Positions 18,484 to 48,691 of a stretch of DNA of 64,000 nucleotides are shown here, piece after piece. Below the pieces are notes generated by a model, which had not been told where the DNA came from, made no database searches, and saw only the letters and a list, made by a program, of their open reading frames with translations. The translations under genes were made by a program, and so were the position numbers. The stretch covers positions 1,974 through 65,973 of the forward strand of contig JBGPLZ010000002.1 in NCBI GenBank assembly GCA_041486695.1, written 5' to 3'. How positions within the stretch are numbered: the first letter of the stretch is position 1; every line of letters starts with the position of its first letter. Origin of the DNA: Acidobacteriota bacterium. GTDB taxonomy: Bacteria; Acidobacteriota; Polarisedimenticolia; Gp22-AA2.

Positions 18484-19305
18484 TCAGTGCAGCCCTCTGG
18501 GGAGGGTGACGGTGATCGCGGCGGAATTGTTCGAGTAGTCGGTCTCCTGGAAGAAATGTTCGGCGTTGACTTCGACCTCGAGGATGTAGTCACCCGCCGA
18601 CAGCCCGGTGACATCGATCCACTGGCCGTCGAACCACGCGGCGTAGAAATCGGCCTGGCAGACGCTCAGCCCCATGTCGTCGCAGGAGAAGTACCTGGGG
18701 CGATCCTTGCTGCCGGCGCAGACACCCTGCGTGTAGTGATAGACATCCACGACGCAGAACCCCTGCTTCCTGCCGGTGACGAGCTTCTTCGCCAGGTTCG
18801 GGTTGGCCACCAGGAGGTCGCGCGCGCATGAGGTCGGGTTCGTCTGGCGAAGGGCGAGCCATTGCGCGTAGTCCTTCGGAGTCCAGAGACGGTAATCGGA
18901 GTACTCCTTGAAGTGCGTGTGCCCGTGGCAGGTCACGAAGTCGAACCACTCGGGGTGATCCGTCGGCTTGCCGATGATCAAATCGCCCGGGCCGAGGTTA
19001 GGGGTAGCGGTGTCGAACCGTAGTAACCAGCGGTCGCCTGCGGTCACTTCCCCCTCGGCGACGGAGCAATCGGTCGAGGTCCAGGTCTCCTTGTTCAGTG
19101 CCAGGTTGGGGGGAATCTCCGAGCCGTCGACGATCAGGTCGGGACAGCCGTTCTTGTCGGAGCACGGGATGGCGGGCACGCAGGTCGTCTGGGTCTGAGC
19201 GGACGACGGGCGTGCAGCGGCGAAACCCCCGAACAGAACAAGCATCGAAACAAACACGACCCTGCAGAGAAGAGAGCGATCCAAGTCACACCTCCTGGGC
19301 GACAC
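18484..19305 (-). CDS. Secreted lysyl-oxidase-like (copper amine oxidase, LOX catalytic-domain family) protein
   Basis: His-rich copper-site-like segment FVTCHGHTHFKEY resembles the LOX WxWHxCHxHYH motif. Many conserved Cys, consistent with the LOX disulfide pattern. N-terminal signal-like region. The start is GTG at 19305; an alternative ATG lies at 19245 (MLVLFGG). Confidence 0.55.
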   Translation of the reverse strand: MSPRRCDLDRSLLCRVVFVSMLVLFGGFAAARPSSAQTQTTCVPAIPCSDKNGCPDLIVDGSEIPPNLALNKETWTSTDCSVAEGEVTAGDRWLLRFDTATPNLGPGDLIIGKPTDHPEWFDFVTCHGHTHFKEYSDYRLWTPKDYAQWLALRQTNPTSCARDLLVANPNLAKKLVTGRKQGFCVVDVYHYTQGVCAGSKDRPRYFSCDDMGLSVCQADFYAAWFDGQWIDVTGLSAGDYILEVEVNAEHFFQETDYSNNSAAITVTLPRGLH

Positions 19306-22305: not shown

Positions 22306-24597
22306 CTAATGGCTCGTCGGCGACTGCCCGGAGACGATCCAGAGCGCCGCGGGTAGCGCGGTCAGGCTCGCAACCATCGACAGCACGAAGGCGCTGGCGG
22401 CGACGATGCCGAACTGGCGCATCGGCGGCAGCCCCGACAGCGCCAGAGCCAGAAACCCGGCGGCGTTGATCAGCGTTGCGAACAGGATGCCGCGCCCGGC
22501 GATCTGCAAGGCGTGCCGGAGCGCCTGGGCGGTGTTGCCGCGGCCCCGCGCCTCCTGATAGTGATAGAAGAAATGGATCTGGTCGTTCTCGGAAGCTCCG
22601 AGGACGGTCGAGCCGATCAGGATCGTCGCCACGTTGAGCGGGATTCCGCACAGGCGCATCACCAGGAACATCACCAGGATCGCGAACACCGATGGGATCA
22701 TCGCCAGCAGGCGCGCCGCCCCGCTGCGGAAGACCAGGACGAAGGCGGTGAAGATGATCGCCACGGTGAGGGCGAAGCTCTCGGTCAAGGTCGGCACGAG
22801 ATACTCGGCGATCTTCGCCTGCAGCAACCCCTGGCCGACGATCTCCATCCGGCAGCGGCGAAGCGCCGGCACGCGGGCCGCCGCCTCGTCCCAGCGCTCG
22901 CGCAGGAACCGCCGCAGATCGGCGATCTCCGGGAAGGCGCCCCCGCGATGGATCACCGTGAGGCGGGCGTGCGCCAGCGTCCCCACGTCCACGTGGGCGC
23001 GGGCGGACGGCTCACTGAGCAGGATCTGCTCGAGCCGCGCCGCCAGAGCCGGCCAGGCCCCGGGCGCCTCGGGAAGGCGATCGCCCTCGCCCGCGAGGTA
23101 GCGCATGAAACGCAGGATCGTGGTGGGGCCCTGGACCGAGCCAACCCTGGGGTCGCGCTCGAGCAGTCCCGCGAATGTCTCGAGGCCGCGGAGCACCTCC
23201 GGGTCGAGCACCGCCCCCGCCGGCGTCTCCACGCTGACGTGTACGACGCTCAGCCCCGCGATGGCGCGCTCGAAGTGGCGCGTGTCCTTGTAGAGCGGCA
23301 GGTCCCGGTCGATGTAATCCAGCGTGTCGGTCAACAGGCTCATCGGCGCGAGTCGGCCGGGGACCCCCGTGAGCGCGACGAGGCCGGCGATCATAAGCAG
23401 GGCCGTGAGCGGCAGGATCACGAATCGAAAGCGGTACGAAAAGGATGGGAGCGCGTCGATCAGCCGGCGCAGGCTCGGCCCGGGGCCGTCCCGGGCGCCC
23501 CGCATCGGGGTCTTTAGTATGCGCTGGAGGGCCGGGAACAGGGTGAAGGTGACGACGAACGTCAACCCGAGCCCCGCCGCGACGCAGAGTCCCATCTCGC
23601 GGATCGGGCGGATCCCCGACACCGCGAGGGCGGCGAAGCCGGTGGCCGCCGCGAAGATCGACACAGCGGTGGCCACGAACTTGTTGGCCAGTGTGAACAG
23701 CTGATGCGCCTCGAAGGACGCCCCGTCGGGGTTCTCGGTGAAGCGCGACTGGATGTAGACGAGGGAGGCCGTGGCCGTGACCAGGATCGTGAGAGGGACG
23801 AGCGAGGAGACGATCGTGAAAGTGAAGCCCGCCGTAGACGCGAAGCCCACGGTGAGCGCGACGCAGACGGCGAGCGTCGCGAGGAAGGCGAGGAGAGTCC
23901 TGGCCGAGCGATAGAGCGCCAGATTGACCGCGATCACGAACAGAGCGAACAGGGGAAACGAGATCGCCGAAGCCCGGGCGGTCTCGCGCTCGAGATAGGC
24001 GTCGACGTACGGACCGCCGACGCGACGGATCGCCGTCAGGGGGGCCGGCGCCGCCTCGAAGGGAGCGAGCGCCAGGTCGATCGCCGCCAGGGTGTCGTTG
24101 CGGTCGTGAGAATTGTTCACCTGAAGCTCGAGGGCGATGCCGAGGAAGTCGGGGCCGACCAGGCCCTGCCGGCGGAGCAGATCGGTGCCGGAGGCGAAGC
24201 GGCGGAACGCCTCCGCCCGCGTTGCAGGGTCTCCTGCCTCCCGGCGCGCGCGGTCGAAGAGGGTCAGGGCCGTGAAGACCTGGAGCCGCGGCACCTTTCC
24301 CAGGCTCCGTTCGATGGCGGCGACTCGTTCGAGAACGGCGGGGGAGAACGGGTCGCTCACCTCGGCGAGCAGGATCGCCTGCGAACCCTCGGGGAACAGT
24401 TTCTGGAAGGCCCGCGTGTTCCGGGCGTCGGGGTCGCTCTCGACGATCAATCGGTCGATCGAGCTGTCGCTTTCGACCCGCAGCGCCAGGACGATCGCCA
24501 GCGGCAGCAGGAGCCCATACCCCGCGACGATCCACCATCGCCTCGCGAGGAGGGCGCGGAAGAACGCCTGCAGCCGGGGCGCCTCGGTACGGTCCAT
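22306..24597 (-). CDS. MMPL-family RND-superfamily membrane transporter (HpnN-like exporter)
   Basis: 763 aa. An N-terminal TM helix is followed by a periplasmic domain, then two blocks of ~5-6 TM helices, as in MMPL/HpnN proteins. Confidence 0.65.
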   Translation of the reverse strand: MDRTEAPRLQAFFRALLARRWWIVAGYGLLLPLAIVLALRVESDSSIDRLIVESDPDARNTRAFQKLFPEGSQAILLAEVSDPFSPAVLERVAAIERSLGKVPRLQVFTALTLFDRARREAGDPATRAEAFRRFASGTDLLRRQGLVGPDFLGIALELQVNNSHDRNDTLAAIDLALAPFEAAPAPLTAIRRVGGPYVDAYLERETARASAISFPLFALFVIAVNLALYRSARTLLAFLATLAVCVALTVGFASTAGFTFTIVSSLVPLTILVTATASLVYIQSRFTENPDGASFEAHQLFTLANKFVATAVSIFAAATGFAALAVSGIRPIREMGLCVAAGLGLTFVVTFTLFPALQRILKTPMRGARDGPGPSLRRLIDALPSFSYRFRFVILPLTALLMIAGLVALTGVPGRLAPMSLLTDTLDYIDRDLPLYKDTRHFERAIAGLSVVHVSVETPAGAVLDPEVLRGLETFAGLLERDPRVGSVQGPTTILRFMRYLAGEGDRLPEAPGAWPALAARLEQILLSEPSARAHVDVGTLAHARLTVIHRGGAFPEIADLRRFLRERWDEAAARVPALRRCRMEIVGQGLLQAKIAEYLVPTLTESFALTVAIIFTAFVLVFRSGAARLLAMIPSVFAILVMFLVMRLCGIPLNVATILIGSTVLGASENDQIHFFYHYQEARGRGNTAQALRHALQIAGRGILFATLINAAGFLALALSGLPPMRQFGIVAASAFVLSMVASLTALPAALWIVSGQSPTSH

Positions 24598-25557: not shown

Positions 25558-28269
25558 ATGGGACGGAACGGCCCGCCGGTGAACCTTCTGCCACATATCG
25601 ATCGTCTCCTCCGTTACGCCGGGCGCGACGCCTACCGCTGGAGGGACGGCGTCCGCTGGCGCTCCCGCACCTACGCCGAGCTGCACGCGCGCACTCTCGC
25701 CGCGGCCTCCCTCCTGGCGCGGTCGGGGCTGAAGCCCGGCGGCACCGTGCTCATCCAGGGGCCCGATCATCCCGACTGGGTCGAGGCGCTGCTCGGCACG
25801 CTGCGCGCCGGGGGCGTGGCGGTGCCGCTCGAGGCCGCGACCCCGCCGGAGCTCCGATCCAAGGTGGCGCGGCTGTCGGAGGCGCGCCTGCTCATCGCGC
25901 CGCCCGATCTGGAGCCGCCCGCCGGCTGCCGCCGGATCGACTTCGGAACGTGGGGGGAGACGGGCGCCGCGCCGCCGCGGGCCGAGATCGAGGCGGCTCC
26001 CGGCGATCGCGCCCTGGTGGTGTTCACTTCGGGCACGACGGGCGAGCCGAAGGGCGTGGTCCTGACCCACGATAATCTGGCTTCCGACTTCGCGCCGATC
26101 ATGCGTGGCTTCGACCGGCGCGAGGCGTTCATCCGGCCGCTCGGATCGTTGCCCATGATCTCGACCCTGCCGCTGTCGCACATGTTCGGCCAGGCCCTGA
26201 ACATCTTCCTCGGCCTGCACATGGGGGTGACGATCGTCCTCGTCCCGCCGCGGCCGCGGGAGATCCTGCAGGCGGCGCGGCGTCAGAAGGCCTGGGGGCT
26301 GTTCACCGTCCCCAGGGTGCTCGACCTTCTCATGGCGGAGGTCCGGCGGCTGCTCCGGGAACAGGGCGTCCTCGAGTCCCTCGAAAACCGGCAACGGCGA
26401 TTCGAGCGCTGGCCTTTCCCGCTCCAGGCGATCATCTTCTGGAGGGTGCAGCGCCTGCTCGGCTGGCGCTTCCGGTTCATCGTCTCGGGCGGCGCCGCGC
26501 TTCCGGAAGAGGTGCAGCAGTTCTGGCAGCGGCTCGGCACTCTGGTCACGCAGGGGTATGGCCTGACCGAAACCGCGCCGATCGTGACTCTCGCAAACCC
26601 GTTCGAGCGGCGGCTCGGCATCGTCGGCCGCGCGCTGGGCGGCCAGGAGGTGAAGCTCGGCCCGGACGGCGAGGTGCTGGTGCGCGGTCGGAACGTCACC
26701 CCTGGATACCTCGGCGCCGCGCAGCAGAGCGGGGACTGGCTGCACACCGGCGACGTGGGCGAGCTCGACGCGAAGGGGAGGCTGCGGATCCGCGGCCGCC
26801 TCAAGGATGTCATCGTCACGCCGGAAGGGGAGAACGTCCACCCGGCCGACGTCGAGGCTGCCTTTCAGGGGATCGCCGGAGTGCGCGAGGTCGCGGTCCT
26901 CGGGCTTCCCGGAGGCAACGGTGAGCGGGTGCACGCGGTTCTCCTCCTGGAGGGAGGGGCCGCGGCCGAGGAGGTCGTGCGCCGCGCCAACGAGAAGGTG
27001 CTGCCCCGGCAGCGCGTGCGCGACTTCACCGTCTGGCCCGGCCAGGACCTGCCGCGGACGCCGACCGGCAAAGTGCGCAAAGGGATCGTGCGCGATCGGA
27101 TTCTGGCGCTGCAGCAGGAGGCCGGCCCCGGAGCGCCGGCGCGCGCGGCCGAGGCGGGGAGCATGCGGCGCCTCCTGGCGCGCGTGGCGCGGGTGCGGCC
27201 CGACCGGCTGAAGGAGACGACCCTGCTCGTCGAGGGTCTCGGCATGGCGAGCCTCGACCTGGTCGAGCTGACCGTGGCGGTCGAGGAGGAGTTCGGCGTC
27301 AGCCTTCCCGAGGACCGCCTCGCCGACGCGACGGTCGGCGATTTGGAGCGGTTGGTGCGCGATCTGTCCTCGAGCGAGAGGGCCCCGGCGGCGAAGGCCG
27401 CGCCGGCTCCGGCCACGCCCGCCGCGGCCGCGGAGAGCGCGCCGCCGCCGGCCGCCGCCGGACCCGTGCCTGCCGTCGCCCCAATCGCGCCTGTCGATGA
27501 GCCCGGCCCGGCCCGCCCGACGGGGCGCGGCTCCCTGCGGATGCCGCGATGGGCGCAGCGGGTGCCGGTGAGGCTGCTCCGACGTTTGCTGGAGGAGATC
27601 CTCTATCGTCCCGTGGTGTTCCTCTACGGTCGGCCGGAGGTCGTCGGCCTCGAGCATCTCGGGACGATGCGGCCGCCCTTTCTCTTCGTCGCCAACCATC
27701 GCGGCTATTTCGACACCGGACTGTTCAAGGCGCTCCTCCCGCTGCCGCTGCGCGGCCGGATCGCGCCCGGGATGACGACGCGCTACCACCGCGTCTTCTT
27801 CGGGCAGACCGCGGGGAGCCTGGCGCGCTACGCCAAGGAATGGCTCCAGGTGCGGCTCGTCGAATTCCTGTTCGGCGCCTGGCCCCTTCCGGAGACCGCC
27901 GGGTTCCGTGACAGCCTCTCCTACGCCGGCGAGCTGGCGGACGCCGGGAATTCGCTGTTGATTTTCCCGGAGGGGCGGCACGTGCCGGAGGGGACGCTGC
28001 AGCCCTTCCGTCAGGGGATCGGAATCTTCGCGCGCGATCTGCGGGCGCCGGTGATCCCGGCCTACGTCGAAGGGACCGCCGAGGTCTTCCCCGACGACGC
28101 CTGGTGGGCCAGCTTCGGGAGGACGCGCCTGACGCTCGGGGCACCTCTCCTCATCGAGCCCTACGCCGACCCGGCCGAGGCGACGCGCCTCATCGAGGCC
28201 GCCGTGCGTGCGCTCGAGACCGCCTCGAGGCCACCCACCGGCCGGGGCGCACAGCGCGGCCGGGCATGA
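25558..28269 (+). CDS. Tri-domain fusion: AMP-dependent acyl-CoA/acyl-ACP synthetase, acyl-carrier-protein domain, and lysophospholipid (PlsC/LPLAT-type) acyltransferase
   Basis: AMP-binding motif I VVFTSGTTGEPKGVVLTHDN. ACP-like phosphopantetheine site region EGLGMASLDLVELTVAVEEEFG after a Pro/Ala linker. LPLAT HX4D motif FVANHRGYFD and FPEGRH motif. 903 aa. Confidence 0.75.
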   Translation: MGRNGPPVNLLPHIDRLLRYAGRDAYRWRDGVRWRSRTYAELHARTLAAASLLARSGLKPGGTVLIQGPDHPDWVEALLGTLRAGGVAVPLEAATPPELRSKVARLSEARLLIAPPDLEPPAGCRRIDFGTWGETGAAPPRAEIEAAPGDRALVVFTSGTTGEPKGVVLTHDNLASDFAPIMRGFDRREAFIRPLGSLPMISTLPLSHMFGQALNIFLGLHMGVTIVLVPPRPREILQAARRQKAWGLFTVPRVLDLLMAEVRRLLREQGVLESLENRQRRFERWPFPLQAIIFWRVQRLLGWRFRFIVSGGAALPEEVQQFWQRLGTLVTQGYGLTETAPIVTLANPFERRLGIVGRALGGQEVKLGPDGEVLVRGRNVTPGYLGAAQQSGDWLHTGDVGELDAKGRLRIRGRLKDVIVTPEGENVHPADVEAAFQGIAGVREVAVLGLPGGNGERVHAVLLLEGGAAAEEVVRRANEKVLPRQRVRDFTVWPGQDLPRTPTGKVRKGIVRDRILALQQEAGPGAPARAAEAGSMRRLLARVARVRPDRLKETTLLVEGLGMASLDLVELTVAVEEEFGVSLPEDRLADATVGDLERLVRDLSSSERAPAAKAAPAPATPAAAAESAPPPAAAGPVPAVAPIAPVDEPGPARPTGRGSLRMPRWAQRVPVRLLRRLLEEILYRPVVFLYGRPEVVGLEHLGTMRPPFLFVANHRGYFDTGLFKALLPLPLRGRIAPGMTTRYHRVFFGQTAGSLARYAKEWLQVRLVEFLFGAWPLPETAGFRDSLSYAGELADAGNSLLIFPEGRHVPEGTLQPFRQGIGIFARDLRAPVIPAYVEGTAEVFPDDAWWASFGRTRLTLGAPLLIEPYADPAEATRLIEAAVRALETASRPPTGRGAQRGRA

Positions 28270-29009
28270 GCGGGCGCTGGGGCGCGGGCGCGCCGCAGCC
28301 CGACGTCGTCCGGTTCCTGCAGGGGCCGCAGAAGCGCGGCTTCGAGCTGGCTCGGGCGCTGCGCATCTTCTGGGAGCTGATGCGCGGCTTCCGGGCGCTG
28401 CACTTCGTCGGCCCGTGCGTCACCGTCTTCGGCTCGGCCCGCTTTCAGGAGGATCATCCTCACTACGCGCTCGCCCGCGAGGTCGGGGCCCGCCTGGCCG
28501 GGGCGGGGTTCACCGTCATGACCGGCGGCGGCCCGGGCATCATGGAGGCCGCCAACCGCGGCGCCCGCGAGGCCGGCGGCCGCTCCATCGGCTGCAACAT
28601 CGAGCTGCCGCTGGAGCAGCAGCCCAACCCGTACCTCGACCGCTTCATCACCTTCCGCCACTTCTTCGTGCGCAAGGTGATGCTGGTGAAGTACTCCTAC
28701 GCCTTCATCGCCCTGCCCGGAGGGTTCGGCACGCTCGACGAGATCTTCGAGACCGCCACGCTGATCCAGACCGGGAAGATCAAAGAGTTCCCGCTCGTCC
28801 TGATCGGCCGCGACTTCTGGCGCCCGCTCCTCGAGTTCATGCGCGATCGTCTGGCCGCCGAGGGGACGATCGATCCGGTCGATCTCGACCGGTTTTTCGT
28901 GACTGATTCGGCCGAGCAGGCGGTCGCGGAGGTCACCCGCGTCGCGGTCGGCGCCTTCGGCCTGACCTATGGCCCGCGGGTGCGGCGGCGCTGGCTGCTG
29001 GGGGAGTGA
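28266..29009 (+). CDS. LOG-family protein (cytokinin riboside 5'-monophosphate phosphoribohydrolase / TIGR00730 Rossmann-fold nucleotide-binding)
   Basis: LOG signatures GGGPGIMEA and PGGFGTLDE. The ATG overlaps the stop of the upstream acyl-ligase gene (ATGA). Confidence 0.8.
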   Translation: MSGRWGAGAPQPDVVRFLQGPQKRGFELARALRIFWELMRGFRALHFVGPCVTVFGSARFQEDHPHYALAREVGARLAGAGFTVMTGGGPGIMEAANRGAREAGGRSIGCNIELPLEQQPNPYLDRFITFRHFFVRKVMLVKYSYAFIALPGGFGTLDEIFETATLIQTGKIKEFPLVLIGRDFWRPLLEFMRDRLAAEGTIDPVDLDRFFVTDSAEQAVAEVTRVAVGAFGLTYGPRVRRRWLLGE

Positions 29010-29280
29010 GGCCGCCGGACTCCGGTGGCGGCGTTGCGAATATTGCGTGGCGGTTTCCATCGTTCGGCAATTCTTGCGCCCGATGCATGATTTGCAGGAT
29101 GATAAGAGAGTTTCCGCCCGCTGCTTCGAGACAATTCGACCGCCTGCCAGAGAGGCTAATTGGGCCATAAATGCAGGGAAACGCCGTCCTCCGGTCGGCT
29201 GGAGTCGCCGAGGCCATCATTTTGGCGTGCGGTTTGCTCAGGGGGCAGTCGGGTCCACCTCCGGAGAAGGAGCGAGGAAT

Positions 29281-32200
29281 ATGAATCCAAGAAAATCAGG
29301 CCGCCTTCCCGTGAACTCCCGTTTCATGGCTGCGCTTGCCCTTGTCCTTCCCCTGTTGCTGGATTGGAGCACTGCCCGCGCGGCGGTCCAGTATCTGGGC
29401 AATGGCGCCCTGCAGAACGCCAATGGTGGCTGGGACCTGCCGGCGCAGGGCACCTGCCCGGCGGATCCCTCCAAGGTGACCCGTCCTGATTGTCTCGCGC
29501 TCAGGCTCAACATCGTGCAGGCGAGCTGCGTCGCTCCCAACCTCTCATGGACCACGGGCGGCGTCTGCAACGACCTGGTGAACACCACCCAGGGGGCCTG
29601 CCAAGCCGCGCCCGATCGCCTGTGGAACAGTGCTACCGGCGTCTGCGCGATCGTCATGAAGGACGACGACCGGAACAACGTCACCTGCGCGCTGCACGGC
29701 GGCACCTTCGTCGCGACGGGAACCTGCATCGGCGTCTGGATCATGCCCGCCCGTACCGCTTACACGCCCAACCTCCTCACCAGCAACAGCCCCGGAGATC
29801 AGTGTCTTCGGTGTCACAACGCCGAGACCCAGTACAACGGCACGCGGGTCCGGGACGTGGAGAACTTTCTGTACAGCGGGCACATGAACATGGCCAGGAA
29901 GGTGAAGGTCGGCATGCCATGGGGCGGTCCTCCTTTCAGCTGCAGCAGCGTTCTGTTCACCGACGAGCAGACGTGCGAGGAGAATGGCGCCCAGTGGAAC
30001 CCGACGGTCTATCCGTCCGACGATACCGGCAACACCTTCGACTGGATCAACGGCCGGATCAACGCCAGCGGTGGCCCGTACGATCTGGCCTGGATCTACG
30101 GTGACTGGCTGAGCCCGCTGCCGAGGGCGATCTACCGAGCTCCTGCCAGCTCGTCGCAGGTCTGCAGCGACCCGCGGTACTCCAACTCGACCTGCGTCGC
30201 GAACGGCGGGATCCTGATCAACAACGCCGGCGCCTCATATTCCTGCGCGCGGTGCCACACGACGGGCTGGACCAGCGATGCCACGATCAACACCGCGACG
30301 AACATCGATGGGAAGGACCCGGAGCTGTCGTTCCCCGGAATCACCTGGGACAGAAGCTCCAATGCCGGCTTCGGTGTGGTCAATCTTTCGGGCGGCGTGG
30401 CCAACGACCCCAACAAATATGCCTCCTGGGACCAGTACGGCATCGTGTGCACGAGGTGCCACAGCTCCGCGATCGACACGACCACCGGGACCGGCTCGCC
30501 GGCGCAGTACAGCGCGCCGGCCGGCATGTCGTCCCATCACAGCACCCTCACCGCCTCGGACGTCAGCAGCGGCGCCGGCTACTGCAGCGATTCACGCTTC
30601 ACCGCGCAGGCCCAGTGCGACGCCGCAGGCGCGGCTTGGTTGACGGCGTGCAGCATCGCCGGCGCGTGCAGCGCTCCGGCGTACACGACCTCCGGAAGCT
30701 GCCTGGCCAACGGCGGGAGTTGGACGAAGTACGACACCGCCGTGGCCTGCACGACGGCCGGCGGGACCTTCTATACCTCCTCCTGCAACCTCGCCGGTGT
30801 CTGCAATACTCTCAACCCCGCGCACTCGACCCAGGCGCTCTGCGAGGCGGCGGGCGGGCAGTGGGCCGCGGCCTCGGACATCGTCCGTTGCCTCGACATC
30901 CATGAGTACGGCAAGGAGAACGGCGTCGCGGCCTACACGGCCGCCGTCTGGACCGGTTCCAAAACGAACCGGGGCCCGATCATCACCCGCCTGTGCATGG
31001 ACTGCCACCGGCAGGAAACCTCCGGCATGCCCTACGCCAACGCCAGCGCCACCGCGGGGACCCTGGACACGGTCAACCCCGGTCTCTACCTCAAGGTCGG
31101 GCCGGCGCACAACACGGTCTCGTTCGTCAGCCATCCGCACGGCAACATGTTCCTGAACAGCCCGCACGGGAAATTCACCGGCACCTTCAATCAGATCGCG
31201 ACCGGGAAGTTCTCTTATGCCATGACCGGCGACTACAAGAGCTTCTTCCAGACCGATGGGGAGGCGGCCAACACCGGGAACGGCTGCACGGGATGTCATG
31301 ATGTCCACGAGAGCACGGTCCCCAAGACCAGCCCGTTCCCCGCCATTCGCGAAGAGTGCACGGAGTGCCACGCGAAGAACCTGAACGTGATCATGCATCC
31401 CCATGGCACCGGGACGCCGCTCGAGAACCTGGCGACCGATCCCGTCGAGTCCTGCGAAACGTGTCACATGCCCGGCGGACTGCACCTGTTCCGGGTCAAG
31501 GCGGATGCGGCCTACTCCACCTTCCCCAGCGGCGCTCTGACCGGCACGGTGAATGCCAACACCTCGCCGGACGGCACGTTCACCAACGCGGTCTGGGTCG
31601 ATATGGACCACTCGTGCGGCCAGTGCCACGGCGGCGGGACGGTGCAGGCCTCGACCACGGGCGGCATCCCGAACGGCAGCAAGGTGCTCACCGTCGCCGC
31701 CACGACCGGGTTCGCGGCCGGCGAACGGATTTCCGTCGCCGACGCCGGCAGCCTGAGCTATGACGACGTTGGTTCCGTCGTGAGTGGCGATTTCGAGACC
31801 TACATCGTCTCGGTGGTTCCGCCCGGCACTCTCAATCTGGCGGGCGCCGCGTCCGCCACCGTCAGCGGCAAAAGCGTTCTCCAGAACCCCACCAAGAACG
31901 GCGCGGGCTACATGACCAGGACGCAGCTGGCGAGCCTTGCGAAGGGCATCCACAACGACAAGCCGTACGTATCGTTCGGCGCCAAGCTGGGCAGCCCCAA
32001 CACGCTCACGGTCATGGTGGATGCGTCGGCCTCGACCTGCAGCGGCAGCAGCGCCAACTGCGACGCGTATGATTGGGACTGGAGCGACGGTTCGGCACAT
32101 GGTTCGGGCGTGACGGCGTCCCATACCTATGCAAGCGCGGGCGCAAAATCGATCACCCTGACCGTGGAGCAGTACGGGGTGAACGGGAATTCCCTCACCA

Positions 32201-32748
32201 GGACCGTCACGGTCTACGCTCCCGATGGCCCACCCGTTATCGGCAGCACCTGCACGTGGGATCCGAACACCTGGACCATGGCCCTGGCCGATACCTCGAC
32301 GGACACCGATGGCACGGGCGTGAAGCAGGTGACCGTCAACTGGGGCGATTACAGCCTACTCGCCAGTGACACGACGGCGCCTTTTGGGCCGTTCTCGCAT
32401 GCCTATCTCAATGTGGGCAGCTACGCGATCATCCACAAGGCGATCGACACCATAGGACAGCAGTCCACCGAGACGGCATGCACGGCGGCGCCGGCGTACT
32501 TTGCGATCGGCGGCACGGTGTTCGCGAGCGGTGGCATCACACCCGTGTCCTCGGCGGCCGTGACTCTGAGCAAGGGCGGCTCGGTCGTCAAGACGGTCTA
32601 TACCCTGGCCAACGGCACGTTCGCGGCTGGATTCCTGAAGCCGGGCACCTACACGCTCACGATCACCAAAGTCGGGTACACGTTCCCAGCGGTCGCGCCG
32701 ATCACCGTCGGACCGAGCAGTGCCGGAAACAACGTTTCGGCCATGTAG
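29281..32748 (+). CDS. Large secreted multiheme c-type cytochrome (8 CXXCH) with Cys-pair repeats, two PKD-like domains and a C-terminal CarbopepD_reg-like domain
   Basis: SD GGAGCGAGGAAT before the ATG. Signal peptide. Eight CXXCH sites: CLRCH, CARCH, CTRCH, CMDCH, CTGCH, CTECH, CETCH, CGQCH. Repeated C-x-A-x-GG-x-W/F...C modules. PKD-like segments (DWDWSDGSAHGSGVTASHTYASAGAKSITLTV; VNWGDYSLLASD...SHAY). C-terminal beta-sandwich-like region (GTYTLTITKVGYTF). 1155 aa. Confidence 0.75.
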   Translation: MNPRKSGRLPVNSRFMAALALVLPLLLDWSTARAAVQYLGNGALQNANGGWDLPAQGTCPADPSKVTRPDCLALRLNIVQASCVAPNLSWTTGGVCNDLVNTTQGACQAAPDRLWNSATGVCAIVMKDDDRNNVTCALHGGTFVATGTCIGVWIMPARTAYTPNLLTSNSPGDQCLRCHNAETQYNGTRVRDVENFLYSGHMNMARKVKVGMPWGGPPFSCSSVLFTDEQTCEENGAQWNPTVYPSDDTGNTFDWINGRINASGGPYDLAWIYGDWLSPLPRAIYRAPASSSQVCSDPRYSNSTCVANGGILINNAGASYSCARCHTTGWTSDATINTATNIDGKDPELSFPGITWDRSSNAGFGVVNLSGGVANDPNKYASWDQYGIVCTRCHSSAIDTTTGTGSPAQYSAPAGMSSHHSTLTASDVSSGAGYCSDSRFTAQAQCDAAGAAWLTACSIAGACSAPAYTTSGSCLANGGSWTKYDTAVACTTAGGTFYTSSCNLAGVCNTLNPAHSTQALCEAAGGQWAAASDIVRCLDIHEYGKENGVAAYTAAVWTGSKTNRGPIITRLCMDCHRQETSGMPYANASATAGTLDTVNPGLYLKVGPAHNTVSFVSHPHGNMFLNSPHGKFTGTFNQIATGKFSYAMTGDYKSFFQTDGEAANTGNGCTGCHDVHESTVPKTSPFPAIREECTECHAKNLNVIMHPHGTGTPLENLATDPVESCETCHMPGGLHLFRVKADAAYSTFPSGALTGTVNANTSPDGTFTNAVWVDMDHSCGQCHGGGTVQASTTGGIPNGSKVLTVAATTGFAAGERISVADAGSLSYDDVGSVVSGDFETYIVSVVPPGTLNLAGAASATVSGKSVLQNPTKNGAGYMTRTQLASLAKGIHNDKPYVSFGAKLGSPNTLTVMVDASASTCSGSSANCDAYDWDWSDGSAHGSGVTASHTYASAGAKSITLTVEQYGVNGNSLTRTVTVYAPDGPPVIGSTCTWDPNTWTMALADTSTDTDGTGVKQVTVNWGDYSLLASDTTAPFGPFSHAYLNVGSYAIIHKAIDTIGQQSTETACTAAPAYFAIGGTVFASGGITPVSSAAVTLSKGGSVVKTVYTLANGTFAAGFLKPGTYTLTITKVGYTFPAVAPITVGPSSAGNNVSAM

Positions 32749-32781
32749 GCGATGCGACACCAGGACATCATTGGAGGGACA

Positions 32782-33615
32782 ATGAACAGACTCGTGCGGG
32801 CTGGGCTGGTTGTGGCTGTCGGAGCATGCCTCGCGTCCTACGTCATGGCCTACACCGGCTCGTATACGCCGGGAGCGGGCCTCAACGACACGGTCCATGA
32901 TCTCGGAACGGCCAAGAACGGGATGAACTATGTGGCGATCCCGGCGGACCCTCAGCAGAGGACCTGCATCTTCTGCCACGCCCCGCACAACACCTACAAG
33001 CTGAGTCCGGCCAATGGCGGCCCCGGCGCGCCCGTCGGCGGCGGCCCGCAGGCTCCAGACGCCTTCGATTACCTGCCCCTGTGGAACCATGAGCTGACCG
33101 GCAACTATGCCTCCTACACCATGTACCAGAACGGACCGGGCGCGCCTCAGATCGGCGCGAAGGCCTCCCAGGCGATTCAGAGCGGCATGGTCCCGGGCAG
33201 CGTCTCCCTGCTCTGCCTCAGCTGTCACGACGGAAGCGTGGCCGTGAACTCGTACGGCAACGCCTCGCAGCTCACTGCGTCGCAGAGCAGCGGCGGCGGC
33301 ACGATCGGCGCCGCGTACCTGATCGGCAAGGACAACTATCTGGGGAACCACCATCCGATCGGCTTCAGCTACGACGCGGCGCAGTCGGTGGACCCCGAGA
33401 TCCGCGACGCCAATGTCGCCCAGCTGGGAGGCGCCGGGGCGGTGCGGGATCACCTGTACGGTGCGTCCAGCTCGATGATGGAGTGCGCGACGTGCCATTC
33501 GGTTCACAACAAGAGCAACACCGGTGAGACCCTCCTCTGGAGGAGCGATACGGCCAGCCGGCTCTGCCTGACCTGCCATGACAAGGGCACCGATCCGGGC
33601 GTGGTGACTCCGTAG
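32782..33615 (+). CDS. Tetraheme c-type cytochrome, doubled-CXXCH family
   Basis: SD GGAGGG 4 nt before the ATG. Signal peptide. CIFCHAPHN, CLSCHDGS, CATCHSVHN, CLTCHDKG. The N-terminus is homologous to the N-terminus of the cytochrome at 38710..40569. Confidence 0.7.
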   Translation: MNRLVRAGLVVAVGACLASYVMAYTGSYTPGAGLNDTVHDLGTAKNGMNYVAIPADPQQRTCIFCHAPHNTYKLSPANGGPGAPVGGGPQAPDAFDYLPLWNHELTGNYASYTMYQNGPGAPQIGAKASQAIQSGMVPGSVSLLCLSCHDGSVAVNSYGNASQLTASQSSGGGTIGAAYLIGKDNYLGNHHPIGFSYDAAQSVDPEIRDANVAQLGGAGAVRDHLYGASSSMMECATCHSVHNKSNTGETLLWRSDTASRLCLTCHDKGTDPGVVTP

Positions 33616-33830
33616 TTCGAGAACTGAGTGAACCCGGCGAGAAGGGAATGGCCTCCATCCCCTTCTCGCCTTTTGCGGCCATCCCTTCCTCCACCCTCCG
33701 CGCCATCGCGAGATGGTACAATTCCGCTTCTTGCGATCCTCCGCGCTGGCCGGGACTTTTGAGACGCAACTCCGGCCGCCCGGGCCATCCCACCTTCGAT
33801 CCATGGCTGAAACATGTGGCGGGCGGAATC

Positions 33831-35027
33831 ATGAGACTTCGCGAGGTGGAGGTGGCTGGAGCGCCGCAGATCGGGGAAAGACGAACGAGGCGAACGGGCG
33901 CCTTCGGAGCGATCGTCCCCGCGGTCCTGGCGCTCCTGGCGGCGGCCTGCGCCACGCCCCAGGTCAAGAAGGCGGCCTCCGTCTACTTCCCGCCCTCGCC
34001 GGAGCTCCCCCGTATCCAGTACCTGACATCATTCACCGGTCTGAAAGACGTCGAGGAACAGTCTGCGTTCGACAAGTTCGTCGTGGGCGAGAAACAGGAT
34101 GTGAAGCTGGACAAGCCCTATGGCGTCGCCATCTACGATGGGAAGATCTATGTCTGCGACACCAACGCCACGGTCATCGTTTTCGATCTGAAGGGCAGGA
34201 CCTTTGGCACGCTGAAGGGGGCGGCGGGCCCCGGACAGCTCCTCGGGCCCGTCAACATCAGCATCGAGCGGGATGGCACCAAGTACGTGGCCGACCCCGT
34301 TCGCGGCCAGGTCGTCGCCTTCGACCGGGATGACGGGTACCTCAAAGCCTATGGCGAGCCTGGAGCATGGAGACCGGTTGATGCCGTGCCGTTCCACGAC
34401 CGGCTCTATGTTGCCGACCCCTCGACCGGCCTGGTCAAGGTGTTTGACATCGCCAGCGGCGAGCTCCTCAAGGCGATAGGGGACAAGGGGGAACCCTCCG
34501 AGCGGCTCGACCGGCCCACCAACCTGGCCTTCGACTTCGAAGGGTACCTCTACGTGACCGATGTGGGGCGATTTCAGGTCGTCAAGTTCGACCGGGATGG
34601 TCATTTCAAGGCGACATTCGGAAGGCCCGGCGACAACCTTGGACACTTTGCCCGGCCCAAGGGCATCGCGCTTGATCGTGAAGGTCGTCTCTACGCGGTC
34701 GACGCGTCTTTCAACAATGTCCAGGTCTTCAGCGAGGGAGCGCGGCTGCTGATGTTCTTCGGAGGAGCGGGGGATCAGCCTGGAAGCTTCCTGCTGCCCG
34801 CCAAGGTCGTGATCGACTACGACAACCTGAAGTACTTCCAGAAATACGTCCAGCCCGATTTCGAGATTCAGTATCTGGTCCTGGTGACGAGTCAGTTCGG
34901 ACCCCGACTGGTGAATGTCCTGGCCTATGGGCGGCAGAAGGGGGCCAGGTACCCAAGCGATGAAGAGATCTTGAAGCTGATGGAACAGAAGCGGCAGAAG
35001 GAAATGGAGAAAACACCGAAGGAGTGA
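33831..35027 (+). CDS. NHL-repeat six-bladed beta-propeller (lipo)protein
   Basis: Signal peptide with a lipobox-like LLAAAC. Repeated NHL-type blades (YGVAIYDGKIYVCDT, YVADPVRGQVVAFD, LYVADPSTGLVKVFD, LYVTDVGRFQVVKFD, LYAVDASFNNVQVF). Confidence 0.65.
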   Translation: MRLREVEVAGAPQIGERRTRRTGAFGAIVPAVLALLAAACATPQVKKAASVYFPPSPELPRIQYLTSFTGLKDVEEQSAFDKFVVGEKQDVKLDKPYGVAIYDGKIYVCDTNATVIVFDLKGRTFGTLKGAAGPGQLLGPVNISIERDGTKYVADPVRGQVVAFDRDDGYLKAYGEPGAWRPVDAVPFHDRLYVADPSTGLVKVFDIASGELLKAIGDKGEPSERLDRPTNLAFDFEGYLYVTDVGRFQVVKFDRDGHFKATFGRPGDNLGHFARPKGIALDREGRLYAVDASFNNVQVFSEGARLLMFFGGAGDQPGSFLLPAKVVIDYDNLKYFQKYVQPDFEIQYLVLVTSQFGPRLVNVLAYGRQKGARYPSDEEILKLMEQKRQKEMEKTPKE

Positions 35028-35064
35028 TCCGAAAGATGCCCCGGAGTCTGCCCCTCGAGATCCC

Positions 35065-35601
35065 ATGAGAACCCGGACGGTGGCGATGTTGGTGTGCGTG
35101 GTGGCCGCGCTGACGGCCGGCTGTAACGCCACGACGCGCCACAAGGTTCTCGCGGCGCTGTTCGACGGCGTTCCACCACTCAGAGAGACCGTCCGGTCCG
35201 AGACGAACCAGGGCGCCGAAGGCACGGGGGCCGTGGGGCCGCGGCCGGCGACGCTCTACGAGCATGGACCCTACGCGGCGCGCTTGTGCAGCGCCTGTCA
35301 CGACGCGGCGGCCACCAATGCCCTCGTCGCGCCGAAAGAGACGCTGTGCTTACGCTGCCACGACCTGGGGCTGGTCAAGAGATACGTGCATGGTCCTCTC
35401 GCCTCGGGAGGCTGCCTCGTCTGCCACGATCCGCACAGCTCCCAGTATCAACACCTTCTGGTATCGGAATCCGCCGGCTTCTGCCTGCACTGCCACGACC
35501 GGCAGGACGTGGCGAGAATCGAAGCACACGGCGGCTCGGCGGACAGCTGCACGTCCTGCCATGATGCCCATATGTCGGACAGAAGGTACTTGTTGAAGTG
35601 A
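35065..35601 (+). CDS. Pentaheme c-type cytochrome (c7/c3-like), probable periplasmic lipoprotein
   Basis: Signal peptide and lipobox-like LTAGC. CSACHD, CLRCHD, CLVCHDPHSSQYQHLL, CLHCHD, CTSCHDAHMSD. Confidence 0.7.
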   Translation: MRTRTVAMLVCVVAALTAGCNATTRHKVLAALFDGVPPLRETVRSETNQGAEGTGAVGPRPATLYEHGPYAARLCSACHDAAATNALVAPKETLCLRCHDLGLVKRYVHGPLASGGCLVCHDPHSSQYQHLLVSESAGFCLHCHDRQDVARIEAHGGSADSCTSCHDAHMSDRRYLLK

Positions 35602-35611
35602 AGGCGGGACT

Positions 35612-37639
35612 TTGCGTATCAAGAATGGTCTCATCCTGATGGCAGTGATCGGCGTCGTGAGCGACGTCGCAGTCGCCGGGGGATCCGACTTCTTGCCCAG
35701 GCCGACGAGGAACGGGGCGTTCGTCGACCTGTTCACCTCCTACGAGCGCGACGACAATCCCGGCAGCGTACGGTCGTTCGGCTGGCACGACACCTTCTTC
35801 AAGGAAAAGCTGACCTTCTTTTCGAACGGATACTTTTATCATCCGCGGTTTCTCCAGTACCAGGTGTCCGTGGCCGGGGCCCTGAAGCAGGAGAGGTTCG
35901 AAGCCTCCTATCTCAACCCCCAGGACTGGCGGCATGGAGAGGGCGTGGAGTATGACGGCCGGTTGTTCTTCCTTCCCGAACACCCCTACAATCTCGAGCT
36001 CTACGCGCTTCGGTACGAGCCCCTCTTCAAGACTCAGGCCGCGACGGAGCACGACAGCCTTCAATCGGGATGGGGAGCGTTGTTCCAGTACCGACAAAGG
36101 CCGTGGTTCTCGCACGCGAAATTGAGCGACAGCACCACCCGATCGGGGATCCTGACCTCGAATGTCAGGAGGCTCGGTCTCGACGGCGAGTACGTCACTC
36201 GATTAGGGACCGCAGGCCAGTTCTCCCTGAATGCCTCCGTGAACCCCACGCACTTCTCGAACTCCCAGGGACTCGACGGGCGCTCGACGGAATTCCTGTT
36301 CGGAAACCTTATAAACCTGAAGCGCGTCCGGCTGAACTCGAGCCTCACCCGGAACACGTCGGACCAGGACAATGGTCTCAGCGGGCGGTTTGAGAACGAT
36401 CAGTTCACCTGGTACGAGCTTCTGAGCCTTTACTTCCCGTTGAACTTCCGCAGCGATCTTTCCTTTCGCCGGCAGGAGAATGAGAGCACGATCCCGGACA
36501 CCCTCACTTCGATCGATCGCACCTTGTCCGATACGAGTGAGCAGGTCCAGCTCGACATCGTGCACCGGTTGTTCCGGAGCCTCGACACCACCTACAGGTT
36601 CCTGGACATTTCGCGTGATTCCTCCGGCGGGGAATCGACCTTCCGGTCGAATTCACTCTTCGTCAACTACACCAAGATGATCCCGGACGGACGAGTCCTC
36701 GCGGGCGTGAACCTGGGAAGGAGCCGAAGCGACAATAAGGGCCGGGCGGATGTCGTGGATGAGCCCCATCCCGGAACCGCGGTGCCGGGAGTGTTCACCC
36801 TGGCGCAGCAGAATGCCGATCCGCGCAGCGTCGCCGTGTTCATCAAGTCGCCGCTGTCGCCATTTCAGGCGATTCTCCTGGTCGAAGGCCCGCACTACGT
36901 GGTGACGCCGGTGCTGAACACCCTGCAGATCACCATGCTGGACCTGCCACCGCAGTTCACCGTGCCGGGAACCTATGACTTGTTCGTCGATTACTCGCTG
37001 TCGACGGGCGAGTTCGGGCTGGGGACGGACAACGTCGGCTGCAACCTGAGCGTCGAGCTGCTGAATACCATGTTGACCCCGTACTACAGTTATGCGGCGA
37101 TCCGTTCGACGGTCGAGTCCGGGTCGTTTCCCGGGACTCCTCTTGATTCGACGACGCACACGGTCGGTCTGCGGTTTCACCAGGGACCGCTGCGGGCGAC
37201 CGGGGAATACCAGAACCTCGATTGGGACATCAGCCCTTATCAGGCCTGGAGAAGCGAGGTCCAGTACATCAGCTCGCTGAATCCGAGGACCAGGGTCTAC
37301 CTGAGCGGAGCCTACGTCAACAAGTACTACTCCCACGGCACCTCGGTGGCCTTCAGCGAGCCGTACACCGATGAGAACGCCACCGCCTTCGGAAGCATCC
37401 AGAGGCAGTTCGCTCCGCGCAGTCTGGTTCTGTCCGGGGGAGGGTCGTTCACGCGCCTGCGAGGCCGGGTGGACGGCAATGCGTACACGCTGAACGGCTC
37501 GCTGAGCTGGAAGATCGGCCGGTTGAGTCTGGCGGCCGGCGCGAGCGCGTACAAATCCGATACGCGCGGATTCAATGCCTTCTCGAGCGACCGTTTCCAC
37601 GAATACTATTACGTCTCTCTTCGGAGGGAGTTCTTTTGA
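35612..37639 (+). CDS. Outer-membrane beta-barrel (porin-like) protein, candidate porin partner of the adjacent cytochromes
   Basis: TTG start in the track with a plausible signal peptide (RIKNGLILMAVIGVVSDVAVA-GG). Alternating amphipathic beta-strand pattern throughout. C-terminal ...YYYVSLRREFF with a terminal Phe, typical of OM beta-barrels. The 675-aa size is comparable to MtrB/MtoB-class porins. Confidence 0.5.
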   Translation: MRIKNGLILMAVIGVVSDVAVAGGSDFLPRPTRNGAFVDLFTSYERDDNPGSVRSFGWHDTFFKEKLTFFSNGYFYHPRFLQYQVSVAGALKQERFEASYLNPQDWRHGEGVEYDGRLFFLPEHPYNLELYALRYEPLFKTQAATEHDSLQSGWGALFQYRQRPWFSHAKLSDSTTRSGILTSNVRRLGLDGEYVTRLGTAGQFSLNASVNPTHFSNSQGLDGRSTEFLFGNLINLKRVRLNSSLTRNTSDQDNGLSGRFENDQFTWYELLSLYFPLNFRSDLSFRRQENESTIPDTLTSIDRTLSDTSEQVQLDIVHRLFRSLDTTYRFLDISRDSSGGESTFRSNSLFVNYTKMIPDGRVLAGVNLGRSRSDNKGRADVVDEPHPGTAVPGVFTLAQQNADPRSVAVFIKSPLSPFQAILLVEGPHYVVTPVLNTLQITMLDLPPQFTVPGTYDLFVDYSLSTGEFGLGTDNVGCNLSVELLNTMLTPYYSYAAIRSTVESGSFPGTPLDSTTHTVGLRFHQGPLRATGEYQNLDWDISPYQAWRSEVQYISSLNPRTRVYLSGAYVNKYYSHGTSVAFSEPYTDENATAFGSIQRQFAPRSLVLSGGGSFTRLRGRVDGNAYTLNGSLSWKIGRLSLAAGASAYKSDTRGFNAFSSDRFHEYYYVSLRREFF

Positions 37640-37658
37640 TGCGCGCGCCAGGATCGCC

Positions 37659-38729
37659 ATGATGAGGACACGGCTCGAAAAAATATCCGCCAGAGGGTGG
37701 ATGGCGGCGTCGGGTGCGCTCCTCGGCCTCCTCTCGGGATGCGTGTCGGCCTGGACGCTGCGTACGGCGCAGCCGGGAGTTTCCCTGCAGTGGCCCTATC
37801 AACCGAATGCGGCCAAGATCACTTACGTCGAGTCCTTGACGGGCTTCTCGGAGCACCGGCGATCGGCCGCCGTCTTGAAGACCTTCGTCTATGGCAAGGA
37901 CAAAGAGGACGTGAACGGATTCATCCTGCCCGTAGCGGTCGCCACCGGACCCGATGGACGGATCGCAGTCGCAGACATGGGCCGGCGGTGCGTCCATCTG
38001 TTCGTGCCGGCCGGACAGACCTATCTGCGCCTCGACGGGTCCAAGAAGGAAAAGATCGGCTCGCCCGTGGGAGTGATCTTCGACGACGAAGACCGTCTCT
38101 ATGTCGCGGATTCGGCAGGCAAGGTGTTCGCGTTCGCCGGAGATGGTCGCCATCTTTTCACCCTGGAGAAGACTGAGGCCGGCCCGTTGCAGCGGCCGAC
38201 CGGCCTCGCCTACAGCCCCGTCACGAAGCTCGTGTATGTCGTCGACACCCTTGCCAACCGCGTGCATGCTATGAACACGAGGGGGGACGTCGTTTTCTCG
38301 TTCGGCGAGCGCGGGACGGGCGGCGGCGGGTTCAACTTCCCCACCCATATCTTCTGGTCGTCGGGGAAGCTGTACGTCGCCGATTCGCTCAATTTCAGGA
38401 TCAGCATCTTCGACGAGACGGGAAAGCCTCTGAGCGTCTTCGGCCGGCACGGCGACGGGTCGGGGGACCTGGCGCTGCCCAAAGGGATCGCCGTCGACAA
38501 GGACGGCATCATCTACGTCGCGGACAGCATGTTCGACAACGTTCAGTTGTTCGATGATCGCGGCGAGTTCCTCCTGACCCTCGGCAGGAGAGGGGTGGAC
38601 TTCGGCGAGATGTGGTTGCCCTCGGGCATTCATATCAGCGACAAGGACGAGCTCTATGTCTGTGACACCTACAACCGGCGCGTGCAGGTCTTTCACATCA
38701 CGGAGCGGTATGGACATGGCGGGTCCTGA
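37659..38729 (+). CDS. NHL-repeat beta-propeller lipoprotein (paralog of 33831..35027)
   Basis: SD AGGA 5 nt before the ATG. Canonical lipobox LLSGC. NHL blades (IAVADMGRRCVHLF, LYVADSAGKVFAF, VYVVDTLANRVHAM, LYVADSLNFRISIFD, IYVADSMFDNVQLFD, LYVCDTYNRRVQVF). Confidence 0.7.
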   Translation: MMRTRLEKISARGWMAASGALLGLLSGCVSAWTLRTAQPGVSLQWPYQPNAAKITYVESLTGFSEHRRSAAVLKTFVYGKDKEDVNGFILPVAVATGPDGRIAVADMGRRCVHLFVPAGQTYLRLDGSKKEKIGSPVGVIFDDEDRLYVADSAGKVFAFAGDGRHLFTLEKTEAGPLQRPTGLAYSPVTKLVYVVDTLANRVHAMNTRGDVVFSFGERGTGGGGFNFPTHIFWSSGKLYVADSLNFRISIFDETGKPLSVFGRHGDGSGDLALPKGIAVDKDGIIYVADSMFDNVQLFDDRGEFLLTLGRRGVDFGEMWLPSGIHISDKDELYVCDTYNRRVQVFHITERYGHGGS

Positions 38730-40569: not shown

Positions 40570-40627
40570 TCCCCCTCCCAGGCTTGGGAACGGAAGTCGC
40601 CGTGGCGGGACCGGGAGAGGGCCGCCG

Positions 40628-41983: not shown

Positions 41984-42188
41984 CGACCCCCGCAGGTTCC
42001 TCGCGACCTGGGGTCCTGACGAAGTTTATCCTGATGCGGGTCTCGACGATAGTCCGTTCCTGTCGATCGGACGTCGGAGATCATGTCGCACAGAGCATCG
42101 ATCCACCGCGACGAAGCCACCGAGTGTCGGTTGCTCTATCATGGGGCCGCATCGCGGTTCGTCGGAATGGGGAGCGCTTCACAGCGTC

Positions 42189-48655: not shown

Positions 48656-48691
48656 ACGAATTGCGGCGCAGCGTCGCCGGCGGAGAGAACG

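Follow-up and report, generated by a model that had tools for sequence, protein, structure and literature searches.

The Escherichia coli enzyme Aas (b2836) combines an acyltransferase (AT) of the PlsC superfamily with an acyl-ACP synthetase of the ANL superfamily, and it re-acylates lysophospholipids from free fatty acids via an enzyme-bound acyl-ACP. The acyl carrier protein (ACP) involved, AcpP, is the natural acyl donor for both PlsC and Aas. In the AlmEFG system of Vibrio cholerae, an adenylating enzyme loads a dedicated carrier, and an acyltransferase of the LPLAT superfamily delivers the group to a membrane lipid. That system is divided among three proteins and attaches glycine or diglycine to lipid A. 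The subject of this report is a gene that encodes an adenylation domain, a carrier domain, and an AT domain on one polypeptide chain of 903 residues. It is located in a 64,000-nucleotide stretch of DNA from an Acidobacteriota bacterium (GenBank assembly GCA_041486695.1, contig JBGPLZ010000002.1, positions 1,974 to 65,973 of the forward strand), the whole of which is referred to here as the window. The likeness to AlmEFG is one of logic, with one protein in place of three.

With respect to domain architecture, the relevant characterized protein is ElbD from Myxococcus xanthus (MXAN_1528; Q1DC43/ABF88003.1), which consists of FAR-like reductase, ACS, ACP, and AGPAT-like acyltransferase domains and is needed for alkyl ether lipids (PMC9131029). 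The purified protein is soluble, and both its ACS and its ACP were shown to be active in vitro (PMC9131029). The ElbD-like homologs of other phyla are almost all without the FAR domain (PMC9131029), and both split acidobacterial forms and stand-alone "elbD hits" have been reported (bioRxiv 10.64898/2026.06.23.733905). Literature searches revealed no characterized stand-alone fusion of AMP-binding, PP-binding, and PlsC domains beyond ElbD. The architecture described here is not new; it equals the ACS-ACP-AT portion of the M. xanthus protein. When the two are compared by published domain architecture, they display the ACS, ACP, and AGPAT-like acyltransferase domains in the same order on a single polypeptide chain, and, in keeping with the solubility of ElbD, the window protein contains no predicted transmembrane segment. 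They differ at the N-terminus, where ElbD has its FAR-like reductase (NAD_binding_4) whereas the window protein opens with the AMP-binding domain at residue 19. They differ as well in genomic surroundings, namely the elbA-E operon (elbB, HAD-like; elbC; elbE, NAD epimerase/dehydratase) versus, in the window, genes for a methyltransferase, a LOG-family protein, an MMPL transporter, and cytochromes.

Domain organization and conservation

The coding region begins with an ATG that is preceded by a GGAGA Shine-Dalgarno sequence 7 nt upstream, and it lies in DNA of high GC content (62-72% across the window). A first-pass annotation, made from the letters of the DNA alone, had described the product as a single 903-residue fusion of adenylation, ACP, and PlsC-type acyltransferase domains, and domain annotation with Pfam bears this out. 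Four matches lie above the curated cut-offs: AMP-binding at residues 19-385 (E = 1.3e-65, 222 bits), AMP-binding_C at residues 432-505 (3e-5), PP-binding (PF00550) at residues 537-600 (1e-8), and Acyltransferase (PF01553) at residues 694-837 (5.8e-11, 42.8 bits against a 23-bit cut-off). All of the motifs quoted in that annotation are present: SGTTGEPKG at residues 158-166, GMASLDLVEL at residues 560-569, NHRGYFD at residues 713-719, and FPEGRH at residues 803-808. No NCBIfam model reaches its cut-off on the whole protein, and the top matches are long-chain fatty-acid-CoA ligases.

The adenylation (A) domain displays the motifs A3 (TSGTTGEPKG, 157-166), A5 (YGLTE, 334-338), A7 (TGD, 397-399), and A8 (GR, 413-414), and its A10 lysine is Lys505. 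The top match in the PDB is the fatty-acyl-CoA synthetase FadD13 (3r44, 1.3e-35), and to judge from such matches the domain is a fatty-acyl type member of the ANL adenylate-forming superfamily (PF00501). A domain of the FAAL type was considered and ruled out, given that the best matches are FACS-like and the FAAL FadD23 is matched only at 8e-17. In the carrier domain, the candidate residue for phosphopantetheine attachment is Ser565 (codon 27250-27252), which occurs in an LGxxSLD context. NCBIfam models for acyl carrier proteins of the FAS type match this region (e.g., TIGR00517, 3.7e-8), and around the LGxxSLDxVEL helix it is 33% identical (E = 4e-10) to E. coli AcpP, where the corresponding stretch reads LG(A)DSLDTVEL. 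By these comparisons the carrier is AcpP-like and of the FAS type.

The carrier is followed by a linker of 55 residues (606-660), 19 of which are alanine and 14 proline, and both the length and the sequence of this segment vary among homologs. An arginine-rich amphipathic helix, residues 662-692, precedes the AT core. No transmembrane-like segment was found in the protein outside of the A-domain core, which rules out an integral-membrane protein.

Residue conservation was evaluated in an alignment of 39 homologs (36-89% identity) and in a second set of 25 AT domains. Motifs A3, A5, A7, and A8, together with Lys505 of A10, are invariant in all 39 homologs, as is Ser565, the carrier residue whose conservation the first-pass annotation had left to be examined. 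The HX4D motif is intact rather than degenerate, and Asn713-His714 and Asp719, along with Phe803-Pro-Glu-Gly806, do not vary among the 39. Likewise invariant in this alignment are Pro663, Trp665, and Arg675 of the MPRW region just ahead of the AT core. The catalytic residues are the same throughout the set of 25 AT domains.

The matches listed include more than 100 full-length homologs (36-89% identity), each of which displays the same set of three Pfam domains. The C-terminal domain is thus present in the homologs, and they are not merely ligases, even though their database names read only "AMP-binding protein" or "long-chain acyl-CoA synthetase". All of those listed derive from metagenomes or metagenome-assembled genomes (MAGs); where a taxon is named, it is in most cases one of the Acidobacteriota, with Candidatus Polarisedimenticolia among them. 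When 1.84 billion representatives were searched with a profile of the C-terminal domain, 839 clusters (50% identity) were matched at E<=1e-30. The 150 best-scoring of these 839 consist of proteins of 800-932 residues, matched at their C-terminal end, and of fragments; none is longer than 932 residues. A scan of species-representative genomes revealed full-length homologs at 28-40% identity in many groups. These comprise Terriglobia, Vicinamibacteria, Pyrinomonadaceae, Bryobacteraceae, Thermoanaerobaculia, Dehalococcoidia, Anaerolineae, Limnocylindria, TA06, Nitrospirota, Methylomirabilota, a Geobacter MAG, and Acidimicrobiaceae. The family is thus represented in Acidobacteriota, Chloroflexota, and further phyla. 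The window protein is a typical member of a widespread family that has been noticed before and is biochemically uncharacterized.

The acyltransferase domain and a proposed reaction

The AT domain is characterized by the conserved MPRW motif, by an HX4D motif formed by His714 (codon 27697-27699) and Asp719, by an FPEG motif encoded at 27964-27975, and by a motif II of the Aas-like form WPLPETAGFR, which contains Pro776 and Arg784. An AlphaFold (AF2) model of residues 652-903 has a pLDDT of 90.7, and in this model the domain adopts a PlsC/GPAT fold. Foldseek ranked Thermotoga maritima PlsC (5KYM; 1.8e-9, TM ~0.6) ahead of GPAT1, plastid GPAT, PatA, and LpxM. With the HX4D dyad, the FPEG motif, and the fold all present, the domain belongs to the LPLAT/PlsC superfamily. 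When the profile of the C-terminal domain was searched against the PDB, the sole match was again PlsC 5KYM (1.5e-21), with two aligned segments on either side of an unaligned center. The likeness to that enzyme extends to the fold, the HX4D and FPEG motifs, the helix N-terminal to the core, and an acyl-ACP donor. PlsC differs in that it is a stand-alone protein of ~245 residues, in that the central region including motif II is unaligned, and in that only 18-19% of the residues are identical.

The first-pass annotation had likened the protein to an Aas-type enzyme, and the profile comparisons of the acyltransferase agree. The Aas-type models PRK08633 and PRK06814 are the best curated match in 25 of 25 AT domains (2.6e-16 and 1.3e-15); AGP_acyltrn (TIGR00530), which also matches all 25, comes after them at 1.4e-13. 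An ornithine-lipid acceptor, which had also been suggested, finds little support: OlsA models match just three of the 25, at 7e-5. When aligned with hhalign, the AT of E. coli Aas is contiguous with the family over 134 columns spanning motifs I-IV (E = 8.6e-12), and its "FVPLDPTQP" pairs with "AWPLPETAG" of the family at the site of the PlsC "IDR" motif II. E. coli PlsC, treated by the same procedure, aligns over 73 columns that cover motifs III-IV only (2.5e-6). Among curated families, these alignments support the view that the domain is nearer to the Aas-type acyltransferases than to PlsC. Because Aas has no PDB entry, this preference draws on hhalign and NCBIfam alone.

A direct BLASTP comparison with Aas shows 25% identity for the A domain (9e-27) and 26% for the AT (5e-6), and the two proteins share the "PL(D/P)" form of motif II. 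The same comparison confirms the earlier proposal that the window protein carries its own ACP and has the reverse domain order. Specifically, in Aas the AT precedes the synthetase and there is no carrier domain, so that AcpP is borrowed, whereas the window protein has its own PP-binding domain. In addition, the flippase LplT is the partner of Aas, and the window gene has no neighbor of this kind. The window protein is not a member of the Aas family, for the scores, the domain order, and the use of an ACP in trans all speak otherwise. Indeed, the Aas models PRK08043/PRK06814/PRK08633 are not reached, with 127.5 versus 1349 bits and 118.7 versus 1221 bits for the whole protein and 29 bits for the AT alone.

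The explanation that we favor, although we regard the case for it as evenly balanced, is that the protein functions as a self-contained, ATP-dependent and CoA-independent acyl-lipid acyltransferase whose acceptor is most likely a lysophospholipid. In the first step the N-terminal ANL domain would adenylate a free, probably long-chain, fatty acid. The 4'-phosphopantetheine arm carried by Ser565 of the internal AcpP-like domain would next receive the acyl group, and the ~55-residue Ala/Pro tether would then allow the acyl-ACP to reach the C-terminal AT of the Aas/PlsC fold. There the His714/Asp719 dyad would transfer the acyl chain onto a hydroxyl of the membrane lipid acceptor, with docking to the membrane probably mediated by the arginine-rich amphipathic helix ahead of the AT core. 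The overall process would amount to an Aas-type salvage, or re-acylation, with the carrier in cis and the domain order inverted, carried out by an architecture that corresponds to the ElbD core without the reductase. The scheme is deduced from what the domains are, from catalytic residues that do not vary, from the Aas-like form of motif II, and from the lack of a conserved partner gene described below.

Several observations weigh against this scheme. The reductase-less members of the family are biochemically uncharacterized, and the acyltransferase activity of ElbD itself was not detectable in vitro (PMC9131029). By hmmsearch, moreover, the AT profile matches T. maritima PlsC well (1.5e-21). 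In the family, the arginine of PlsC motif III (FPEGTR) has no constant position, and motif II is altered; an acceptor other than a glycerophospholipid is therefore possible. Finally, all matches to the curated Aas or PlsC models fall far under their cut-offs, and thus family membership does not reveal the acceptor.

Genomic context and alternative roles

The coordinates of the domains and of the adjoining genes are provided in Table 1. The methyltransferase (MT) gene ends 11 nt upstream of the tri-domain gene, and, from the sequence and from the orthologs of 276-279 residues in two related loci (L004 and L088), its start is most likely the ATG at 24707. The MT is generic, with no NCBIfam model near its cut-off. 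The overlap of the tri-domain stop with the LOG start, noted in the first-pass annotation as ATGA, is real (gcATGAgc, 28266-28269, 4 nt). The LOG assignment is based on Lysine_decarbox (8e-35), TIGR00730 (2.8e-44, 151 bits against a cut-off of 96.35), and a PGGFGTLDE motif; the cytokinin-specific equivalog NF058542 is not reached (61 versus 300 bits). The gene had also been placed downstream of both a methyltransferase and an MMPL exporter. The first part of that statement is correct. The MMPL gene, however, is on the minus strand and divergently transcribed from the MT, and it is therefore not upstream in the tri-domain transcript. The local transcription unit appears to be MT, tri-domain gene, and LOG, with a lower-GC intergenic stretch of ~160 nt following the last of these. 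A promoter/terminator scan yielded no promoter-like site, and its one terminator-like GC hairpin with a T-run (28875-28892, plus strand), which falls inside the LOG gene, was dismissed, given that 2.0 were expected by chance.

Table 1. Domains of the tri-domain protein and adjoining genes in the window
Feature	Coordinates	Strand	Basis
Tri-domain gene, 903 aa	25558..28269	+	ORF translation; Pfam; >100 full-length homologs of the same architecture
Adenylation (ANL) domain, aa 19-505	25612..27072	+	Pfam AMP-binding, AMP-binding_C
AcpP-like acyl carrier domain, aa 537-600	27166..27357	+	Pfam PP-binding; NCBIfam ACP models
Ala/Pro-rich flexible linker, aa 606-660	27373..27537	+	Residue composition; gapped alignment
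Acyltransferase (AT) domain, aa 662-890	27541..28227	+	Pfam PF01553; profile search; AF2/Foldseek; hhalign
LOG-family (TIGR00730) gene, 247 aa	28266..29009	+	Pfam, NCBIfam
Class I SAM-dependent methyltransferase (MT), 279 aa	24707..25546	+	Pfam Methyltransf_11/25/23
MMPL/HAE3-type RND transporter	22306..24597	-	Pfam MMPL 2.8e-20; TIGR00921 HAE3 1.1e-40, below cut-off

The order MMPL (minus strand), MT, tri-domain gene, and LOG recurs in L004 and L088, whose tri-domain homologs are 89% and 81% identical to the window protein, and the 4-nt overlap is retained in both. Glycosyltransferase (GT2/GT4) genes are placed differently around the unit in these two loci, and no such genes lie beside the MMPL gene in the window. 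At 56-65% identity the neighbors are unrelated (PALP, CDO, Lon, Lhr helicase, his genes, and B12-rSAM/AurF). Homologs at 38-65% identity lack the linkage to MT, MMPL, and LOG, as do those of 71 loci that are more distant.

In these 71 genome loci, all open reading frames within +/-6 kb were clustered all-against-all, and the top clusters were annotated with Pfam. No neighbor family occurs in more than nine of the loci, and none is lipid-related; the recurrent ones, namely DEAD helicase, TPR, metallo-beta-lactamase, and SDR, are local to lineages. Eight further contexts revealed no conserved partner gene either. The window MT, LOG, MMPL, radical SAM (rSAM), PALP, TonB receptor, and lysyl-oxidase proteins were also searched by tblastn against 89 loci, and MT and MMPL were found in L004 and L088 only. 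Genes encoding LOG proteins 44-48% identical to that of the window are found in L015, L016, L019, L021, L036, and L077. These six loci belong to related Acidobacteriaceae MAGs, and in them the LOG genes are 5-9 kb upstream of the homolog and on the opposite strand. They were judged coincidental as partners; their recurrence probably reflects lineage synteny rather than functional linkage. PALP was likewise rejected as a partner, for it adjoins the gene in L001 and L005 yet lies 17 kb away in the window. With no neighbor shared across loci, the tri-domain gene therefore behaves as a stand-alone unit. The lack of a conserved partner in the 71 loci and the eight contexts is consistent with an enzyme whose only requirements are common metabolites, and the MT-tri-domain-LOG operon is peculiar to a single narrow clade and lies outside of the conserved mechanism.

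Among the other roles considered, one modeled on ElbD is unlikely. In it, the A and ACP domains would load a fatty acid for a separate FAR-type reductase acting in trans, and the AT would acylate dihydroxyacetone phosphate or 1-O-alkyl-glycerol-phosphate, which would be of relevance to the ether and membrane-spanning lipids of acidobacteria. Such a role gains credence from the architecture shared with the ACS-ACP-AT part of ElbD, from the abundance of the family in Acidobacteriota, and from the reductase-less or split homologs reported in other phyla, including Acidobacteria (PMC9131029; bioRxiv 10.64898/2026.06.23.733905; PMC11868695). The window protein, however, has no NAD_binding_4/FAR domain, and no FAR-like reductase gene lies immediately upstream, that position being taken by the MT. 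The reductase domain (PF07993) is absent from all 120 of the closest proteins listed, and the best 150 AT representatives do not exceed 932 residues. Nor does the surrounding DNA resemble an elb operon: no reductase, HAD (elbB), or elbE-like epimerase gene adjoins the homolog in the window or in the Pyrinomonadaceae (subdivision 4) loci, and elb-type genes are not conserved neighbors in the 71 loci. Furthermore, carrying an elbD homolog is no predictor of ether lipids, Pontiella being an example (PMC11868695).

The first-pass annotation had proposed a membrane-lipid modification and export module. In its fuller form, a pathway confined to this narrow clade would employ MT, the tri-domain protein, and LOG, together with the glycosyltransferases of the relatives, for the production of a modified acyl lipid or glycolipid, which the MMPL/HAE3 pump would export. 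We consider this improbable. The MT, tri-domain, and LOG genes are indeed tightly packed, with an 11-nt gap and the 4-nt overlap, and the four-gene order is kept in L004 and L088 despite the rearranged GT2/GT4 genes. The MT, moreover, weakly matches the lipid methyltransferases CMAS, Mtf2, and PmtA. On the other hand, the three genomes are closely related, so that the shared order may reflect inheritance alone. The linkage is gone at 65% identity and below and in all 71 distant loci, the window has no glycosyltransferase genes beside its MMPL gene, the MT is of a generic kind, and no lipid-related role is known for LOG. Conservation restricted to two relatives at 81-89% identity does not uphold the module, and the idea, which draws on synteny among only three close relatives, is weak.

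Quite doubtful is a role in de novo phospholipid synthesis from exogenous fatty acids, whereby the AT would acylate glycerol 3-phosphate or lysophosphatidic acid in the manner of PlsB or PlsC, or a lyso-aminolipid in the manner of OlsA. It accords with PlsC 5KYM, a lysophosphatidic acid acyltransferase, being both the sole PDB sequence match and the top fold match, and with the matches of TIGR00530 to 25 of 25 AT domains and of the OlsA models to three. The arginine of the PlsC motif II "IDR" is replaced, however, by the Aas-like "PLPE", and E. coli PlsC could be aligned over only 73 columns. The OlsA matches are marginal, and no olsB-like neighbor was found.

It is very improbable that the reductase-less A-ACP-AT protein provides Acidobacteriota, Chloroflexota, and relatives with a dedicated route, independent of CoA, for installing special fatty acids, such as iso-diabolic or other long or dicarboxylic chains, on glycerolipid backbones, and hence supplies a missing acylation step in the building or remodeling of bacterial membrane-spanning lipids and branched glycerol dialkyl glycerol tetraether (brGDGT) precursors, coupled in this clade to the MT and the RND exporter.

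Other features of the window and of the related loci deserve mention. A B12-binding rSAM protein with a DUF4070 domain (494 residues, 16727-18211, minus strand) is encoded 7 kb upstream of the tri-domain gene. In L005 an rSAM protein 30% identical to it lies just 3' of the tri-domain homolog, along with AurF-like and 2-oxoacid_dh genes. An AurF-like di-iron oxygenase gene is located within a few kb of the homolog in two unrelated loci out of more than 75 (L005, 12845-13753; L026, 11708-12637). The window also encodes a lysyl-oxidase-like protein (PF01186, 5.6e-20; 18484-19305, minus strand), which belongs to a family uncommon in bacteria. Downstream of the LOG gene, at ~29170-41983, is a large cluster of multihaem c-type cytochromes (Paired_CXXCH, MtrC/MtrF-like) interleaved with NHL beta-propeller proteins and a PKD/CarboxypepD_reg protein of ~1200 residues, a composition that suggests an apparatus for electron transfer outside the cell. 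At 41907-43778 (plus strand) follows a gene for a bacterial counterpart of LMF1, the lipase maturation factor of eukaryotes (PF06762, 4.9e-62; LMF1_C, 9.9e-44). A PALP enzyme and then an Arn-like set (GT2, formyltransferase, NAD epimerase/dehydratase, and polysaccharide deacetylase) occupy 45756-50609 on the plus strand. This PALP enzyme is 76% identical to the one encoded divergently from, and adjoining, the tri-domain gene in L001. A 755-residue fusion of VKOR, AhpC/TSA, and redoxin/thioredoxin-like domains is found at 6684-8951 (plus strand). The phosphoketolase (XFP) reading frame at 12419-15676 (plus strand) has an apparent N-terminal extension of ~300 residues, and its real start is probably further downstream.

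Significance

The window adds a typical family member and a lineage-specific operon with MT and LOG, and nothing beyond these. Its main value is twofold. First, metagenomic surveys count this family as "ElbD homologs" and read it as a capacity for ether lipids. Such surveys use loose BLAST criteria, and their authors warn against equating a homolog with the production of ether lipids (PMC11868695). Because the proteins stand alone, without the reductase and without the elb context, caution is called for in inferring ether-lipid capacity from them. Second, the protein offers a tractable target for the first characterization of the family. Given that the family is without a characterized member, one biochemical study would annotate thousands of genes. 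If the lysophospholipid re-acylation scheme proposed here is correct, it would represent a compact variant of the Aas repair pathway, and many soil and sediment bacteria, among them Acidobacteriota, Chloroflexota, Nitrospirota, and others, would recycle free fatty acids into membrane lipids by means of one protein, with no need for CoA or for a soluble pool of ACP.

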